Shown here in pieces: positions 20,781 through 34,164 of a stretch of 35,532 nt of DNA (position 1 is the first letter of the stretch; the number at the start of each line of letters is the position of its first letter). The notes beneath the pieces were generated by a model. It saw only the letters and a program-made list of their open reading frames with translations. It did no database searches and was not told the DNA's origin. Made by a program: the position numbers and the translations under genes. Origin of the DNA: a virus. Its lineage: Duplodnaviria; Heunggongvirae; Uroviricota; Caudoviricetes. The stretch is from IMG/VR virus record IMGVR_UViG_2703718856_000009, positions 1 through 35,532 of that record, one strand, 5' to 3'.

Positions 20781-21866
20781 ATGAAAGAAAGCCGCAGCAA
20801 GGTCATTCAATATAAACGTGCAGTCATCCCTAATTGCACAGCAACGCTTCAACAGATCATAGAATCTATAATTTCTGAAAATGGCGCAGCCTATAAAGTT
20901 AGCGCAAGAAGAGAACAGATTAACCCCTCCGATAGCAATAGTGGATTTAGAGTGGTTAACCGCAGCAGCACTTTCAAGACAGTGTTATTCGGGCAACTTA
21001 TTTTGTTTGAACAAGGTAAAAGCCAAACACTTATGACAATCGCTGATGATGTCAATTATTATGACATCAATGCTATAACATCGAAGCAAATTAAATTAGC
21101 CGAAGACGAAAAAATAAGTGAAGCTGAAAAACAAAAAATAACACGAGAATTTATTGATTCAATACTTTACTTTGGGATTCGTGATAATCATGTGATGATC
21201 GTCCAATCACCGGCTCTAAGGACTAAAGACATAGAAAGCCATCTTAATTGGTTAATCCATTCATTTAGCACTATTTTTAATGGTGACGACTTCCTTGTGC
21301 TTCAAGATAAACCAACTGAAGACACCATAAAAAAAATGCATGAAAGTCCAGTCAAGAAAATAAATTTCGGCAGTATCCCAATCAAAAATTCTGATTCTGA
21401 AGATGTAGTTAAAATAAATAATATAAGTAACACAAACGACCTCCCCACAACAATAAAAGAACAGGTCGAAAAAGTTAAGAAAATAAAATTCATGCCAACT
21501 GGTAAAGGTGGCGATATTATAAAAGCTGCTTTTGGCGAAGCATGGTTTAATAATTTACAACTGGAAGATTCTCTTGATGAATCCAATTTACAAGTTAATC
21601 TAGAAATAACCTATTTCCGCAAGACAAACAAAGATGGTCAACGTGTACTCGATACTTTAGCAACTTCACTCAGAAATATAGACGATGAAGATATTAGTAT
21701 AAACCTTCAAGGTGGTGGCATAATTAAAGGCAGTGATTTAAAACTATCCGGTAAAGTAAACGTCCAATATAACAATGGACTTATTGATGAAAATGATTTA
21801 TATTTACAAATGCACAAATGGCTGACTTCAAAGGTTCAAACTGGAGAAGTAAAAGTTAAAAACTAG
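20781..21866 (+). CDS. Hypothetical 361-aa soluble protein (AT-rich cassette gene 1)
   Basis: Long ORF with RBS; Lys/Asn/Ile-rich; no family recognised by eye. Confidence 0.8.
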   Translation: MKESRSKVIQYKRAVIPNCTATLQQIIESIISENGAAYKVSARREQINPSDSNSGFRVVNRSSTFKTVLFGQLILFEQGKSQTLMTIADDVNYYDINAITSKQIKLAEDEKISEAEKQKITREFIDSILYFGIRDNHVMIVQSPALRTKDIESHLNWLIHSFSTIFNGDDFLVLQDKPTEDTIKKMHESPVKKINFGSIPIKNSDSEDVVKINNISNTNDLPTTIKEQVEKVKKIKFMPTGKGGDIIKAAFGEAWFNNLQLEDSLDESNLQVNLEITYFRKTNKDGQRVLDTLATSLRNIDDEDISINLQGGGIIKGSDLKLSGKVNVQYNNGLIDENDLYLQMHKWLTSKVQTGEVKVKN

Positions 21867-21884
21867 AACCAACAGGAGGCGGAA

Positions 21885-22397
21885 ATGAGCTTCTTTAAAT
21901 TTATTATAAGATTCTTATCCGCCTTCGCTTTTGGGTTTGCAATATTTTACTTTGCATCTAGAAAAATTGACTTAAGTGGCATATCTACTCCATGGTCATT
22001 AATAACCTTATTAGCATTCCCTTTCAGTTATTGTATCGCAGCCTTTTTTAAAGTTTCTGAAGCCGACGAAAACACATCACTATCAGATAATGAACTAAGA
22101 AGATTACGACCGATAATTGATGCAAAAAAAAGACATCTTGGATTTCTTATCTTTTTTTATCTTATTGCTGCTTTTTCAGGAGCAATTGGTATGTTCGCTA
22201 TTTCCAGAGAGTCGATAGTTTATCTATATTTTATATCTGCTTGTGGAGGAGGCATTGCTGCTGCAATGTATTCTTTTTTCTTTATCAGCTCAATAAACAG
22301 CGAAATACAGAGATTTAAAAGCATCTTATTACACAGAGCTGAAGCGAATAAAAAAACGAAAGAATTTATAGACTCATTAAACAAAAAGGCGGATTGA
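21885..22397 (+). CDS. Hypothetical 170-aa membrane protein, about four TM segments (cassette gene 2)
   Basis: AGGAGG RBS 7 nt before the ATG; four hydrophobic stretches (FIIRFLSAFAFGFAIFYFA, LITLLAFPFSYCIAAFF, LGFLIFFYLIAAFSGAIGMFAI, LYFISACGGGIAAAMYSFFFI). Confidence 0.8.
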   Translation: MSFFKFIIRFLSAFAFGFAIFYFASRKIDLSGISTPWSLITLLAFPFSYCIAAFFKVSEADENTSLSDNELRRLRPIIDAKKRHLGFLIFFYLIAAFSGAIGMFAISRESIVYLYFISACGGGIAAAMYSFFFISSINSEIQRFKSILLHRAEANKKTKEFIDSLNKKAD

Positions 22398-22415
22398 AAT
22401 CCGCCTTTTTGTTTT
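22386..22415. terminator. Intrinsic terminator (bidirectional hairpin) between cassette and Q
   Basis: AAGGCGGA-TTGAAA-TCCGCCTT followed by TTTTTGTTTT, with an A-run on the other side; overlaps the cassette stop codon. Confidence 0.7.
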
Positions 22416-22417
22416 CT

Positions 22418-22780
22418 TCAATCCATTTCTAATCTAATATCCAACATTGAAAGACAACCTTCGATAAATCCTTCAGCCATTTTAATCTCAATGCGTATAA
22501 GTTTCTCGTCCTTTTTCTTTTCTTTAGCAATTTTTCTCTTAGAAAGACCATACAAATAATGTGCTACTAGTAACGAATGCTCATAAGGTTTTTTCTTCTT
22601 CAGCCGAGCAAGGCACCCCTCAATGATTAATCCGTCGGCATCAGTACATGAGAGTCTGTTTTTACCTGTTTGTGGTAAAAGCCCTTTAAATCCTGCTGCG
22701 ATTGGAGAATAGTCAACGCCTGAATTATCACTAGCAGCCCATCCCCCCCAACGCTCAAGAACCATCTGAATATCACGCAT
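22418..22780 (-). CDS. Late-gene antiterminator Q
   Basis: Start taken at MRDIQMVLERWGGWAAS...; ends ...GCLSMLDIRLEMD; resembles K-12 QuuD-type Q as I remember it. Confidence 0.8.
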   Translation of the reverse strand: MRDIQMVLERWGGWAASDNSGVDYSPIAAGFKGLLPQTGKNRLSCTDADGLIIEGCLARLKKKKPYEHSLLVAHYLYGLSKRKIAKEKKKDEKLIRIEIKMAEGFIEGCLSMLDIRLEMD

Positions 22781-22797: not shown

Positions 22798-23793
22798 TCA
22801 GGCCAGCACGCCAGTTGCCAGCGCACGATCGATAAAACGAAATATCAGCTCCAGCTGAGAGCCATACTTCTCTTCAAATGCCACGGTATCCGCATGCAGC
22901 TCGTCGTGATGCTTTCTGCACAAAGGCAACACAAAGAGGTCATGCGCTTTTGTACCCATTCCCCCCTGACCGTGGCCTATCAGGTGGTGGGGATCATCAG
23001 CAGGTTTTCCACAACATGCGCACGGCTGCGTCTTAACCCAACGCGTGTACTTTTCGTTAACCCAGCGGCGACGTTTTGGGCGTAACATAAAAGAGTCCGG
23101 CGACTCCGGATCCACTTTCAGCGCCAGCACCTTTTTTGCCTTATCCTGGATGATGCTGGTGGCAGGAACCGAAGGCACAAGGTCACTTTCCCGGGTGACA
23201 GACGGCACAACAGGCTTTGGTAATCTCAGTGCCTTACGGGCTGCACTTTCCGGTAAGGCATCCGCCAGGTCATTACGAACCAGCCACCAGCACAGTTCCG
23301 GCATTGTCACAACGTGACTATCATCAAAACCGAGATCCCGACGCACAACAGACAACACCCAGCGGGCACAGTTATCCGTTGCCATTGATTCCAGCCGTTC
23401 CGTGAACTGATCGCGCAGCTGGTTATCGCAGTGCCAGCACAGACGGATTGCGCCCGGAGCGTGTCGCATTGTGGTCATGTTCTCGCTGTGCCAGTCGGAA
23501 TGAGGCCACTGGCAGCCTTTTTCACGAAGTAACCAGCTTTCAAGACATTCCACGCCACCAGCACGACGGATCACTGCCTCATTGCGGAACACGGCCCGAA
23601 CGGCAGGATCATCCGCCAGCGGTTGTGATGCCGCCGGAACGGCACCGCTGGCGAAAGATGAATAACGTTCCGGCTCAGGCTCCAGCAGGACACGCCCCTG
23701 CATAAACAGGGGCATCAGCTCTGAACCAGGTCTGAACAATACGATCCCCATACGCGGGGCAATTTCAGGGGTCAGTAGTGCTCTCACAGTCAC
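22798..23793 (-). CDS. Prophage protein with C-terminal HNH/zinc-binding-like motif (DUF968-like)
   Basis: 331-aa ORF; C-terminus ...QPCACCGKPADDPHHLIGHGQGGMGTKAHDLFVLPLCRKHHDELH. Confidence 0.7.
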   Translation of the reverse strand: MTVRALLTPEIAPRMGIVLFRPGSELMPLFMQGRVLLEPEPERYSSFASGAVPAASQPLADDPAVRAVFRNEAVIRRAGGVECLESWLLREKGCQWPHSDWHSENMTTMRHAPGAIRLCWHCDNQLRDQFTERLESMATDNCARWVLSVVRRDLGFDDSHVVTMPELCWWLVRNDLADALPESAARKALRLPKPVVPSVTRESDLVPSVPATSIIQDKAKKVLALKVDPESPDSFMLRPKRRRWVNEKYTRWVKTQPCACCGKPADDPHHLIGHGQGGMGTKAHDLFVLPLCRKHHDELHADTVAFEEKYGSQLELIFRFIDRALATGVLA

Positions 23794-23794
23794 C

Positions 23795-24622
23795 TCAATG
23801 AACGGTATCGAGCAGCTTTAACAGCTCAGGGAATCGGGATTCGAAGAAATGCGGCTGCGTCTCGCGCGGATTTGCGGGACTGGTGATGTTCTTGCCGAAC
23901 ATGCAGCCTTTCGCTGTCAGCGACCAGAATTTTTTGATGTTGTTAATCGAGGTACGGCTGTATCGTTCGCGCTGCTCGACGATCCCCAGCTTCACCATCT
24001 GGTGATATGCCTGATTAGCCGTCAGGCGGATACCATACTGCTTCAGCAGTGCACTCAGCGACAGCGTAGGGCGGCTTGAACCATCTGGCGCATCAGCAGG
24101 TGCATCAATGGCATAGATCGGCATAAGTTCAGGAAGACCAGCTACCTTTGATAATTTCTGGTATGCACCAAGTTTCGAGGAGTTTGACAGATTTAGAGTC
24201 TTTGCTGCTGATTCAAGCAGAATGACCCCGGATTTAATTTTGTCGGATGTGGTTTCTTCTGGTGATGAATTATGAAGCGCATCAAAAGTACGTATCACTT
24301 TTAAGCTGAATGCCGGGCTGATCCACATTGCATATGCATAGACCAGCTCTTTACAGACATACGTCCCACCATTGCGCCCCTGAATGGTGATGACAGGAAT
24401 ACTACGGGAATCTCCCGTAGTTTCTTCTTCCAATAATTCCACAAGAGCCTTCGTTTCAGGACGACGCATAAACTCGTGAACTTCCAGCGAACGGGAGGAG
24501 CGATTCTCACCAGCGGCAAGAAGAGCAGCTTTCTGAAGGTCGTTAAGACAGTAGTTAGATTCGAAGTACTGGCGCACAGAAACGCCATCAATTACAAGCA
24601 ACTGATTCATTGGTTTCTCCAC
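23795..24622 (-). CDS. Antirepressor (KilA-N domain plus C-terminal Ant-like domain)
   Basis: 275 aa; N-terminus MNQLLVIDGVSVRQ...GTYVCKELVYAYAMWISPAFSLKVI is KilA-N-like. Confidence 0.8.
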   Translation of the reverse strand: MEKPMNQLLVIDGVSVRQYFESNYCLNDLQKAALLAAGENRSSRSLEVHEFMRRPETKALVELLEEETTGDSRSIPVITIQGRNGGTYVCKELVYAYAMWISPAFSLKVIRTFDALHNSSPEETTSDKIKSGVILLESAAKTLNLSNSSKLGAYQKLSKVAGLPELMPIYAIDAPADAPDGSSRPTLSLSALLKQYGIRLTANQAYHQMVKLGIVEQRERYSRTSINNIKKFWSLTAKGCMFGKNITSPANPRETQPHFFESRFPELLKLLDTVH

Positions 24623-24707
24623 AAATTTTTATCCACGAGCGGGACTGCACTCCCTTTTCGTTGATGCAGGATGAACTTACTGCGATTTTTAATAGTTATC
24701 AAGGATA

Positions 24708-24727
24708 TACTGTTCATAAATACAGTA
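24708..24727. promoter_or_regulatory. LexA (SOS) box upstream of the antirepressor
   Basis: TACTGTTCATAAATACAGTA fits the CTGT-N8-ACAG consensus; lies about 85 bp upstream of the ant start. Confidence 0.65.
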
Positions 24728-24772
24728 TCTTTAACGAGGTAATACCCAAATTTAGGGTGTTGCTCAATTCCG

Positions 24773-25168
24773 TTACCGAGTTGCTAATTTGCAACTCGCT
24801 TTTTCGTACTTACTGATAGTGATCTCGACCTTCCCCTCCGGGATAACCGGTCCCCACTCCACCAGCATTCTTTTCACCTGACTGTCGTCTTCCCACACAC
24901 CCGCGTGGGTCAGGGCGTCAAACAGCGCCTTGTTATAGTTGTCCAGATCGCGGATCCGGTTATCCGGAGGAAACAAAACGATCTCCACTGAAGCAGGTGC
25001 CGACGTTGGTTTCGGCAGACGACGTAACTGCTCAACTATTGCTGCGCACGCCGCGCTCTGGAATTTTCACCCCGCCGCGCTTATCAGGCTCTTACCAGCA
25101 AACGCCCCTTTGTTGGGGTGTCGCCAGTACGTGTTCACGCTGGGCGGAAAAGGAAGGATCAGCTTCAT
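24773..25168 (-). pseudogene. rusA: rusA-type Holliday junction resolvase interrupted by in-frame TGA at codon 34
   Basis: ATG at 25166-25168 gives MKLILPFPPSVNTYWRHPNKGAFAGKSLISAAG, then TGA (25067-25069), then the same frame continues KFQSAACAAIVEQLRR...DLDNYNKALFDALTHAGVWEDDSQV. Confidence 0.75.
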
Positions 25169-25491
25169 ACTTTCAGGCCCCTCTCATGTAACCAGTGGGC
25201 TGCACGCAGCCTGGCGTTTTCCTCACCGGCAAGCAGTGAGCGGATAATCCCGACCGCCTCGCTGTCGTCGTCCTTCACCACGGTATGAAGCGTGATCCCC
25301 CGGGCCACACCACGCTTTATCGTGATGACGCCTTTTTTCTCCAGTGCGCGAAGATGCTCCACCGCTGCATTCACCGAACGGTATCCCAGCATGGTTGCCA
25401 CCTCCTGATTGGTTGGCGGGAAGCCACGTTCTTTCTGATAAGAAATCAGCATATCCAGCACCTGCTGCTGGCATTGAGTTAACGTCGTCAT
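25165..25491 (-). CDS. LexA N-terminal DNA-binding-domain homologue without peptidase domain
   Basis: Start at internal ATG (25489-25491), overlapping the upstream stop as TAATG; LTQCQQQVLDMLISYQKERGFPPTNQEVATMLGYRSVNAAVEHLRALEKKGVITIKRGVARGITL parallels the LexA winged-helix domain. Confidence 0.7.
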   Translation of the reverse strand: MTTLTQCQQQVLDMLISYQKERGFPPTNQEVATMLGYRSVNAAVEHLRALEKKGVITIKRGVARGITLHTVVKDDDSEAVGIIRSLLAGEENARLRAAHWLHERGLKV

Positions 25492-25985
25492 TACGCCCCC
25501 ACGTAATTCCCTGACAGATACCACTCATCACTCGATACAGCGCGCTTGCTGCTTTTCCGTAAACACTGCTCACGACGCGCCAGAAAATTGTTTCGTTCTG
25601 GCTGGGAGTGGCTTTCACGGAATGCCGCCATCCACACCGTTGCAGCACGACGGTATAAGCCCCTGGACTCCAGTTCTTCAGCCTGGCGGGTCAGGCACAA
25701 AATCTCCCGCGGGTCGTTAGTGCCGACATAGAAATTGCGCACAGGTCTGGTTTCACGAACTGGTTGCGGTTCCGCCTCCTGCGCTCTCTCAGTCAGGCGC
25801 GGGAAATGTCTGCGTGTATCCCCTTCACAACGGTGAGCCACACGCCCACTCTGACGTAACTTGCTTGCTGACTGCAGAACGCGCTGCCGTGAGTAACCTG
25901 CAAAAGCATCCGCAATGTCTCCGGAAGTACACCCCGGATGGGCTTCAATGTATTTCTGAACTTCATTCAAAAGACTCATGATCAC
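25491..25985 (-). CDS. Hypothetical 164-aa protein of the replication/nin region
   Basis: ORF with coupled start and stop; family not recognised. Confidence 0.55.
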   Translation of the reverse strand: MIMSLLNEVQKYIEAHPGCTSGDIADAFAGYSRQRVLQSASKLRQSGRVAHRCEGDTRRHFPRLTERAQEAEPQPVRETRPVRNFYVGTNDPREILCLTRQAEELESRGLYRRAATVWMAAFRESHSQPERNNFLARREQCLRKSSKRAVSSDEWYLSGNYVGA

Positions 25986-28154: not shown

Positions 28155-28781
28155 ATGGAAACGGTTGGTCAGCGTATAAAAGCTCTGAGAAGAGTTACCG
28201 GAACGTCCCAGAAAGAATTGGGTAAATTTTGTGGAGTAAGCGACGTTGCTGTGGGGTACTGGGAGAAAGACATCAATACCCCTGGTGGGGAGGCACTTTC
28301 GAAATTAGCGAAGTTCTTCAATACGTCAATAGATTACATTCTTTATGGTGCTGAGTTTGAAGGCAAACTCGTCACAAACATGCGCAGAGTTCCTGTAATA
28401 TCGTGGGTTCAGGCTGGGCAGTTTACTGAGTGCAGGGCAGCAGAAGTGTTTAGTGAAGTGGACAAGTGGGTAGATACATCATTAAAGGTTGGTGATAACT
28501 CATTTGCATTAGAGGTTAAAGGTGACTCCATGACTAACCCTAATGGCCTCCCAACAATACCAGAAGGCGCAACAGTGATTGTAGATCCAGATGCAGAACC
28601 TCGTCATGGAAAAATAGTCATCGCTCGACTTGATGGAACAAACGAAGCTACAGTAAAAAAATTAGTCATCGATGGCCCTCAAAAGTTTTTAGTGCCATTA
28701 AATCCTCGGTATCCCAACATCCCTATCAATGGTAATTGCCTTATCATTGGTGTAGTCAAAGGAGTTCAATACGAACTCTAA
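28155..28781 (+). CDS. CI-type repressor (HTH plus LexA-like S24 peptidase domain)
   Basis: 208 aa; N-terminal HTH (..VTGTSQKELGKFCGVSDVAVGYWEK..), C-terminal S24-like region with GDSM and a downstream Lys. Confidence 0.9.
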   Translation: METVGQRIKALRRVTGTSQKELGKFCGVSDVAVGYWEKDINTPGGEALSKLAKFFNTSIDYILYGAEFEGKLVTNMRRVPVISWVQAGQFTECRAAEVFSEVDKWVDTSLKVGDNSFALEVKGDSMTNPNGLPTIPEGATVIVDPDAEPRHGKIVIARLDGTNEATVKKLVIDGPQKFLVPLNPRYPNIPINGNCLIIGVVKGVQYEL

Positions 28782-29028: not shown

Positions 29029-29235
29029 ATGCACAAAACAGAACCCAAAATCGTCGCGCCTGGCTACACAGATGAGGAAATTTATGAGTGGATGACAAAG
29101 AAGCTGGCAGCTATAAACCAGCTTCGTGAAGTGCTGTCTTATCGACAGGAAACAATAGACTCCTTAAAAAAACTGGATCAGGAAATCACGGTTTTATCAC
29201 AGGATGTTACTTTAGATATTGTGCAGACAAATTAG
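29029..29235 (+). CDS. Hypothetical 68-aa protein (coiled-coil-like)
   Basis: ATG at 29029 with GAGGA RBS 9 nt upstream; 3' end overlaps the convergent 144-aa gene by 29 nt. Confidence 0.5.
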   Translation: MHKTEPKIVAPGYTDEEIYEWMTKKLAAINQLREVLSYRQETIDSLKKLDQEITVLSQDVTLDIVQTN

Positions 29236-29641
29236 GATCCCATTCATTTTCGTCAAAATCATCAAAGTGATGAATTTGTGATCTCCAGTCTCGATAATCT
29301 AAAAATTTCTGGGCGGTTACGCTTATTTTATCAAGTGTGAGTTCATCCTGAATTGAAAGAAGAAGTTCATCAAATTTCATCTCATTAATCTGTTTTGGCA
29401 TCCAGTGATGCTTCATCAGAATAAGGTGAACCAGAGCCTTTTTCCCATTCAACTGATTATAGGGAGTGCCGAATTTCTTCCGGTGCTCATGTAAGACAAG
29501 GTCCAAAAGAGTAAGTAATGTTGCCCTTGATTCAACTTTGCTTATTTCGACTGATGACACTACCCCACTGATTTCAATGCCCCGATACTTTCCAACATTT
29601 TCACAGTGGGATTTGTACAGCGTATAGATATTACCGGACAT
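29207..29641 (-). CDS. Hypothetical 144-aa protein (AT-rich moron opposite to early-left transcription)
   Basis: AAGGA RBS 7-8 nt before the ATG (29639-29641); direct repeats GTTGTTGGGGA(A)TAAC twice (29657-29674, 29690-29708) in its upstream region. Confidence 0.6.
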   Translation of the reverse strand: MSGNIYTLYKSHCENVGKYRGIEISGVVSSVEISKVESRATLLTLLDLVLHEHRKKFGTPYNQLNGKKALVHLILMKHHWMPKQINEMKFDELLLSIQDELTLDKISVTAQKFLDYRDWRSQIHHFDDFDENEWDPNLSAQYLK

Positions 29642-34088: not shown

Positions 34089-34164
34089 TGGTGCCGATAA
34101 TAGGAGTCGAACCTACGACCTTCGCATTACGAATGCGCTGCTCTACCAACTGAGCTATATCGGC
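34089..34164 (-). tRNA. thrW: tRNA-Thr (anticodon CGU)
   Basis: Reverse complement reads GCCGATATAGCTCAGTTGGTAGAGCAGCGCATTCGTAATGCGAAGGTCGTAGGTTCGACTCCTATTATCGGCACCA, with cloverleaf features, CGT anticodon and CCA end. Confidence 0.95.

Follow-up and report, generated by a model that had tools for sequence, protein, structure and literature searches.

The locus described here raises the question of whether a prophage whose cI repressor appears to be cleavable also places other genes directly under the control of the host LexA protein. It lies in a 35,532-nucleotide stretch of viral DNA (IMG/VR record IMGVR_UViG_2703718856_000009; the whole stretch is called the window below), an SfIV-like myovirus prophage of E. 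coli/Shigella with a lambdoid early region, in which a LexA (SOS) box stands in front of a gene for a KilA-N-domain protein (kilA-N). The original prediction for this site was SOS induction of an antirepressor of the coliphage 186 Tum or Gifsy type. We favour another interpretation, to which we give an even chance of being correct: host LexA controls an internal promoter of the nin region (P_kilA), providing SOS-triggered expression in parallel with cleavage of cI. DNA damage would then probably switch on kilA-N, a DUF968 gene and the gene for the late antiterminator Q directly.

Sequence and statistical strength of the LexA box

24708-24727, no assigned strand: LexA (SOS) box; plus strand TACTGTTCATAAATACAGTA, minus strand TACTGTATTTATGAACAGTA

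The box was found exactly where the original prediction had placed it, and its description as a consensus LexA site was borne out. Compared with TACTGT(AT)4ACAGTA, both arms (TACTGT...ACAGTA) are perfect and the three mismatches all fall in the AT-rich centre. The core CTGT-N8-ACAG occurs a single time in the window, which by itself is unremarkable, 0.36 occurrences being expected by chance. When the full 20-mer consensus is sought with at most three mismatches, the box is the sole match in the window and none of 100 shuffles gave one.

Scores were obtained with a home-made weight matrix based on 20 published E. coli LexA sites; the absolute bit values are approximate, but the ranking is robust. 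On this scale the box reaches 23.2 bits, compared with 12.7-26.9 bits for known E. coli sites and 11.0 bits for the runner-up in the window. Not one of 2000 first-order Markov simulations of the window attained 23 bits, the maximum being 20.6. On a heterology-index-style score, a home-made scale applied identically to all three sites, the box (3.9) falls between recA (4.8) and sulA (3.2) and ranks among strong sites. Judged from its sequence by consensus and chance criteria, the box is a strong candidate for an enterobacterial LexA operator.

The runner-up (ATCTGTTTTGGCATCCAGTG, 29388-29407, 11.0 bits) lies inside the minus-strand open reading frame 29207-29641. It is at chance level, as 25% of the simulated windows contain a site of at least 12 bits.

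The promoter, leader and start of kilA-N

24697-24702, minus strand: predicted -35 element TTGATA of P_kilA, from the weight-matrix scan and conservation
24674-24679, minus strand: predicted -10 element TAAGTT of P_kilA, 17 nt after the -35 element and in the same register in relatives
24631-24665, minus strand: leader hairpin from RNA folding, with its core at 24641-24654 (GGGA-GUGCAG-UCCC)
24617-24622, minus strand: ribosome-binding motif GTGGAG, kept before the ATG in homologues

The assignment of P_kilA combines a weight-matrix scan with comparative alignment. In the scan it was the best sigma-70 candidate on both strands of 24560-24860, scoring 11.6 bits on our own matrix, for which scores of at least 9 bits occur at a background of 0.48 per kb. 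The box lies upstream, with 5 bp between its end and the -35 element, and overlaps neither of the two hexamers nor the predicted start. Transcription is predicted to begin near 24667, so the centre of the box would be at about -50.

The promoter region was compared with loci from Klebsiella, Kluyvera, Raoultella, Leclercia and Kosakonia and with 33 distinct IMG/VR segments, the comparison being anchored on the leader hairpin. These relatives mostly align without gaps. Their -35 elements read TTGAAA, TTGAAT, TTGAAG or TTGATA, and their -10 elements, in the same register, TAATGT, TAAGTT, TAATCT or TAAGGT. The spacing between the two is exactly 17 nt in most relatives, whereas the sequence of the spacer differs widely. 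In relatives that keep the promoter, the dyad upstream of it always ends 5 nt from the -35 element. We take P_kilA to be a real promoter because the hexamers and the 17-nt spacing are kept while the spacer varies, a pattern that is, on comparative grounds, the signature of a genuine promoter.

Between the promoter and the ribosome-binding site lies the leader hairpin, in the loop of which UGCAG is invariant in 14 distinct loci. The stems vary (GGGA/UCCC, GGCGG/CCGCC, GGGC/GCCC and GUCGG/CCGAC) yet remain paired. Compensatory changes occur at all five of the five loop-proximal pairs across the 14 loci, amounting to 24 cells compared with 1-8 in slid controls; the sequences were picked for having at least three pairs, which biases the percentage paired and affects the covariation much less. 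The hairpin is also present in relatives that have neither the box nor the promoter, and a search of the region against Rfam matched no RNA family.

The start of kilA-N is the ATG at 24610, as given in RefSeq and as indicated by homologues starting MNQL..., which lies 97 bp from the box. The spacing of about 85 bp in the original prediction is correct when measured to the GTG at 24622, but this GTG is part of the conserved GTGGAG motif and is not the true start.

Two possibilities on the plus strand were considered and rejected. The only plus-strand open reading frame that crosses the box, 24610-24816 (68 residues, TTG start), starts upstream of it and is unsupported, and the candidate plus-strand promoters near the box are weak and not conserved. 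At 24777-24798, 50 nt away from the box and within the 3' end of rusA, a hairpin resembles a terminator, its T-run being confined to the plus strand; no transcript that would end there was identified.

Genes downstream of the box and the cI repressor

23795-24610, minus strand: kilA-N, 271 residues, N-terminal KilA-N DNA-binding domain (PF04383, E=1.3e-15; RefSeq WP_001072674.1)
22798-23787, minus strand: DUF968/HNH-like gene (PF06147, E=1e-80), 7 nt past kilA-N
22418-22780, minus strand: late-gene antiterminator Q (PF06530, E=3.8e-53), 17 nt past the DUF968 gene
28155-28781, plus strand: cI repressor, 208 residues, with HTH_3 and Peptidase_S24 domains

The gene that follows the box does encode a KilA-N protein, as first proposed. 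The domain covers residues 10-114 and scores 57.6 bits against a cut-off of 23.8, and the protein is assigned to phrog_129 (PHROG 129), 'transcriptional regulator'; its C-terminal half carries no domain assignment. The order kilA-N, DUF968, Q is maintained in relatives. Because the gaps between the three genes are as short as 7 and 17 nt and the terminator-like matches between kilA-N and Q are all weak, a transcript from P_kilA would be expected to reach Q. A strong hairpin-plus-T-run terminator follows Q at about 22385-22408.

A distance of 3.4 kb separates the box from cI; the box belongs to the nin region and falls outside the immunity region. The C-terminal domain of cI aligns to that of lambda cI with an E value of about 1e-27, and in this alignment the Ala-Gly cleavage site (VQAG), the catalytic serine (GDSM) and the catalytic lysine (KKL) all match. 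The original prediction was right that cI retains an S24 autocleavage domain; with all of the autocleavage determinants kept, cI is by its sequence of the cleavable lambda type.

Distribution of the box and its module

Thousands of homologues of the KilA-N protein were found. Those of mEp460, SfV, cdtI, Stx2a_WGPS2, Salmonella 118970_sal3 and Morganella are 53-70% identical to it, and in these six, as in most phage relatives, the gap between rusA and kilA-N is 17-20 bp, with no box and no space for a promoter. As read from this arrangement, kilA-N is an ordinary member of the pR operon in most phage relatives. In a closer sub-family, the proteins of which are 73-88% identical, the gap is 85-162 bp and carries a P_kilA-like promoter, and within this sub-family the full CTGT-N8-ACAG is restricted to the E. 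coli/Shigella type.

Of 5426 complete E. coli genomes, 186 (about 3%) have a box of the E. coli/Shigella type, among them O104:H4 2011C-3493 and some strains of O157:H7 and O111:H8. The serotype-converting Shigella phage SfIV has it too. Among the related IMG/VR occurrences CTGT-N8-ACAG is intact in 69 of 118, and one more copy of the same type has AGAG in place of ACAG. The block of rusA, box, kilA-N and DUF968 behaves as a mosaic unit, with an intergenic region that is 99.5% identical in O104:H4, O157:H7 NE122 and AZ 187. The module of box and kilA-N is paired with three S24-type repressors, namely the window cI (208 residues) and those of NE122 (217 residues; 41% identical to the window cI) and O104:H4 (230 residues; essentially unrelated), and two types of Q accompany it as well. 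As to the origin of the intergenic segment, only homologous prophage loci matched it; the search turned up neither a host SOS promoter nor another phage as its source.

LexA-like sites also lie 55-80 nt upstream of distant homologues in Erwinia, Edwardsiella, Yersinia phage YeP3 and Serratia. In the Erwinia locus (L039) the site overlaps the -10 element of a clear TTGCCA-17-TATATT promoter. Across 45 distinct full-length homologue loci, the 200 nt before the homologues contain sites of at least 12 bits at a density of 0.87 per kb, compared with 0.032 per kb elsewhere, a 28-fold enrichment (Fisher p=2e-7, a value that ignores relatedness). This distribution suggests that LexA-type control of kilA-N arose or was kept repeatedly.

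In Kluyvera, Rosenbergiella and Providencia prophages (L018 5656, L025 5451 and L044 4960), a DNA methyltransferase gene that lies beyond Q contains a further strong LexA box (TACTGTAAAAATAAACAGTG, 22.5 bits), which begins 6 nt past the ATG. This box has no counterpart in the window.

Proposed LexA control of P_kilA

In the interpretation that we favour, cI would shut pR in the lysogen while LexA, occupying about -37 to -56, would hold P_kilA low, probably through a clash with sigma region 4 or the alpha C-terminal domains. On DNA damage RecA would be activated and LexA would cleave itself; with LexA gone, P_kilA would fire and kilA-N, the DUF968/HNH gene and Q would be transcribed. The firing of P_kilA would run parallel to the RecA-stimulated cleavage of cI, and the benefit to the phage would lie in priming or speeding lytic development and not in a route to the inactivation of cI. 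That part of the original prediction which placed kilA-N under SOS control is plausible, since a consensus-grade box adjoins a conserved promoter; the binding of LexA is proposed from sequence. We prefer host LexA to a LexA-like protein of the phage (described below) as the regulator, because NE122 keeps the box but lacks the gene for the phage protein.

A number of points weigh against LexA control of P_kilA. Most E. coli LexA operators overlap the -35 element, the -10 element or the start site, and repression from a position upstream of the -35 element, centred at about -50, is not assured. A consensus promoter scan of 24400-25300 with a threshold of 9 of 12 positions found no promoter. Expression of Q driven by LexA in an otherwise repressed prophage could be harmful, which makes read-through into Q doubtful. 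Most kilA-N homologues have no box whatever, and relatives in other genera that have the same promoter show only a weak dyad of 10-13 bits (for example AGGTGGATAAATGTCCAGCT), consisting of one good half-site and another half, GTGG, which overlaps the last codons of rusA. LexA control would, on this comparison, be a feature of a lineage and not universal in the kilA-N family. The box core is invariant among the E. coli copies examined, but these copies have a mean identity of 96%, which renders the invariance uninformative. Finally, the paper library that was searched contained no experimental work on the box locus, nothing on the regulation of SfIV, and no account of a LexA box before kilA-N or of LexA in coliphage nin regions.

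A stronger version, which we regard as unlikely, is that host LexA gates the late-gene switch itself. The LexA-flanked promoter would in that case drive Q, the KilA-N protein and the nuclease-like DUF968 protein whatever the state of cI and pR, and during lytic growth the LexA-N-terminal-domain protein of the phage might re-occupy the operator as well as host SOS boxes. If LexA does gate Q, SOS-inducing antibiotics could switch on the late genes faster than, or without, cleavage of the repressor; if it does not, the site is merely another predicted prophage SOS box.

Alternative explanations

25165-25491, minus strand: LexA N-terminal-domain-only protein, 108 residues (PF01726, E=3.7e-19), two genes upstream of the box

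The 108-residue protein aligns to residues 2-86 of E. coli LexA. Ser39, Asn41, Ala42, Glu45 and His46 of the recognition helix are kept, while Glu44 is a valine and Arg28 an asparagine. The protein contains a stretch resembling the Ala-Gly cleavage region, has no S24 core and matches TIGR00498 below the cut-off. It may be an uncleavable mimic of LexA, and it could bind the box. We note that a LexA-N-terminal-domain gene is widespread directly upstream of rusA in lambdoid phages.

The antirepressor model, in which the KilA-N protein would be produced under LexA control in the manner of 186 Tum or the Gifsy proteins and would inactivate cI or the repressors of co-resident prophages, thereby opening a second induction route, is in our view very unlikely. 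It fits a strong LexA box that precedes the gene, lies outside the immunity region and occupies the same relative map position as the Gifsy box; some phage records label KilA-N relatives as antirepressors (kilA of P7 and RCS47, ant of Salmonella phage Emek), and Fels-1, which has a cleavable CI, still carries an antirepressor acting on other prophages (PMC3121763). The protein itself matched no antirepressor family or fold: Pfam (E<=0.01), PHROG and NCBIfam showed no ANT/KilAC (PF03374), Bro-N, Tum/DinI or other antirepressor family, with no match of any kind in NCBIfam; a PDB sequence search gave no relative of solved structure; and the AlphaFold model (pLDDT 76) retrieved only APSES/KilA-N DNA-binding folds, and these weakly, when compared by Foldseek with the PDB and BFVD. 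Lemire et al. link this mode of induction to uncleaved repressors, and the LexA-controlled antirepressors that they name (Tum, AntC, GfoA/GftA) are of small size (PMC3121763), whereas here the product has 271 residues and cI is not autocleavage-deficient and, having every lambda-type determinant, needs no antirepressor. Most homologues stand in the pR operon without a box or a promoter of their own, and a gene whose own expression depends on an open pR, as in most relatives, cannot be the one that opens pR. A cognate pair of repressor and antirepressor is likewise disfavoured because the module joins three different S24-type repressors. The label of antirepressor derives from the domain name, and action in trans on other prophages is possible. 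The family, the fold, the placement in the pR operon, the swapping of repressors and the size of the protein are thus all contrary to this part of the original prediction.

Three further explanations concern the box and not the product. We think it just as improbable as the antirepressor model that the dyad is mainly a target of the 108-residue phage protein, with host LexA secondary, the phage protein acting either as an activator above the -35 element of a weak promoter or as an uncleavable repressor that would re-close the operator late in the lytic cycle. The recognition-helix residues listed above are kept, nearly every locus with the promoter and the dyad also has the gene immediately before rusA, a site near -50 beside a poor -10 element is a common position for an activator, and the dyad of relatives (GTGG-N8-CCAG), though kept at the same position, makes a poor LexA site. 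Against these observations, mEp460 and Stx2a_WGPS2 encode a 98-99% identical protein yet lack both the dyad and the promoter, no co-variation was seen between the recognition helix and the type of dyad, the phage protein is without the dimerization domain of LexA, and the module of O157:H7 NE122 keeps the box although the gene has been lost. It is quite unlikely, if a little less so, that LexA binds with little or no regulatory effect and that the box is a by-product of the recombination which created the rusA/kilA-N junction on a pre-existing half-site. Such an origin would suit the position above the -35 element, which is atypical for repression, and the pseudogene state of the adjoining rusA in the window copy; relatives have the right half (ATGAACAG) in register, partly within rusA codons, so that only the left half would be needed. 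The chance gain of the missing half would nevertheless cost about 11-12 bits, the 186 complete E. coli genomes and most related IMG/VR contigs retain the full box, and independent homologues in other genera are also preceded by LexA-like sites. Least probable of all, and hardly to be expected, is a roadblock, in which LexA would obstruct transcripts from pR when undamaged cells are infected, delaying Q and favouring lysogeny until damage lifts the block. A transcript from pR would indeed cross the box after the replication genes and before Q, and no minus-strand terminator precedes the box, but the proposal is purely inferential, protein roadblocks are usually leaky to coupled or antiterminated transcription, and the conserved promoter directly downstream would be left unexplained.

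Comparison with known systems

LexA-controlled prophage promoters are well known, and what is unusual here is the cargo (KilA-N, DUF968 and Q) together with the position of the operator. The dinI-antirepressor operons of the Salmonella prophages Gifsy-1, -2 and -3 (gfoA, gftA and gfhA; Lemire et al. 2011, PMC3121763) have, like the window, a nin-region LexA box outside the immunity region. In Gifsy the box lies about 1.3 kb downstream of the replication genes and controls an operon needed for induction (PMC3121763); in the window the replication gene ends about 1.25 kb upstream of the box. In both a palindrome precedes the LexA box, and the expression of the prophage is (in the window, would be) tied directly to SOS (PMC3121763). 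The two differ in that Gifsy combines a DinI homologue and a small antirepressor with uncleaved repressors, whereas the window has a 271-residue KilA-N protein, DUF968, Q and a cleavable-type cI. In the window, moreover, the box is upstream of the -35 element and the preceding palindrome is without a T-run on the transcribed strand.

As cited by Lemire et al. (PMC3121763), Tum of coliphage 186 and AntC of N15 each depend on one LexA-controlled, damage-responsive phage promoter, as is proposed here. Tum has 146 residues, with a DinI-like half, and shows no similarity to the KilA-N protein through Pfam, PHROG or NCBIfam. FsoA of Fels-1 demonstrates that a cleavable CI-type repressor and an antirepressor can coexist in one prophage, but the Fels-1 antirepressor is not LexA-controlled and is dispensable for the induction of Fels-1 itself (PMC3121763). 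The phages mEp460, SfV, cdtI, Stx2a_WGPS2 and Salmonella 118970_sal3 share with the window a kilA-N gene of the same family (60-70% identity), the order rusA-kilA-N-DUF968-Q, the hairpin with the GUGCAG loop and a similar GGAG-type ribosome-binding site; they differ in their 17-20 bp gap, which has no internal promoter and no LexA box.

The PrstA promoter of CTXphi is reported to have a LexA site just above the core promoter, where LexA acts together with RstR (Quinones 2005; Kimsey and Waldor 2009), and may offer a precedent for repression from such a position; CTXphi is a filamentous phage with a different repressor system. The byp mutations of lambda create a promoter upstream of Q that bypasses N, and are constitutive laboratory mutations. 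Like the byp promoter, P_kilA would be an internal nin-region promoter for Q that does not require pR, but P_kilA is natural and adjoins a LexA box. Were LexA to gate Q, P_kilA would be a natural, SOS-regulated equivalent of the byp promoter. The window would also add to the lambdoid modules one in which LexA controls genes other than a small antirepressor, alongside a cleavable cI.

Gene context of the locus

24773-25168, minus strand: rusA pseudogene with a variant C-terminus (RefSeq 'internal stop'; RusA domain on a 71-residue remnant)
25491-25985, minus strand: PerC-family (YfdN-like) regulator, between the replication gene and the LexA-like gene

The early region is 100% identical to that of E. 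coli CFSAN061762 and Shigella phage SfIV. The early-right genes are all on the minus strand and follow the order cro, a CII/YmfL-type gene, a replication gene, the PerC-like gene, the LexA N-terminal-domain gene, the rusA pseudogene, the 162-bp intergenic region with the box, kilA-N, DUF968/HNH and Q. The rusA pseudogene forms the upstream border of the intergenic region. Its internal stop is common to the window and SfIV; in O104:H4 and other strains rusA is intact (131 residues) and shares its unusual C-terminus, …KYEKASCKLATR, with the pseudogene.

Between Q and the lysis genes, and in the opposite orientation, lies a pair of low-GC genes (about 33%; 20781-22397, plus strand; 361 and 170 residues), for which searches of Pfam and PADLOC gave no match. 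The pair looks like an accessory 'moron'. In SfIV the area that matches 20781-22397 contains a copy of IS1. A tRNA gene at 34092-34164 (minus strand), near the right end of the window, is possibly the integration site.

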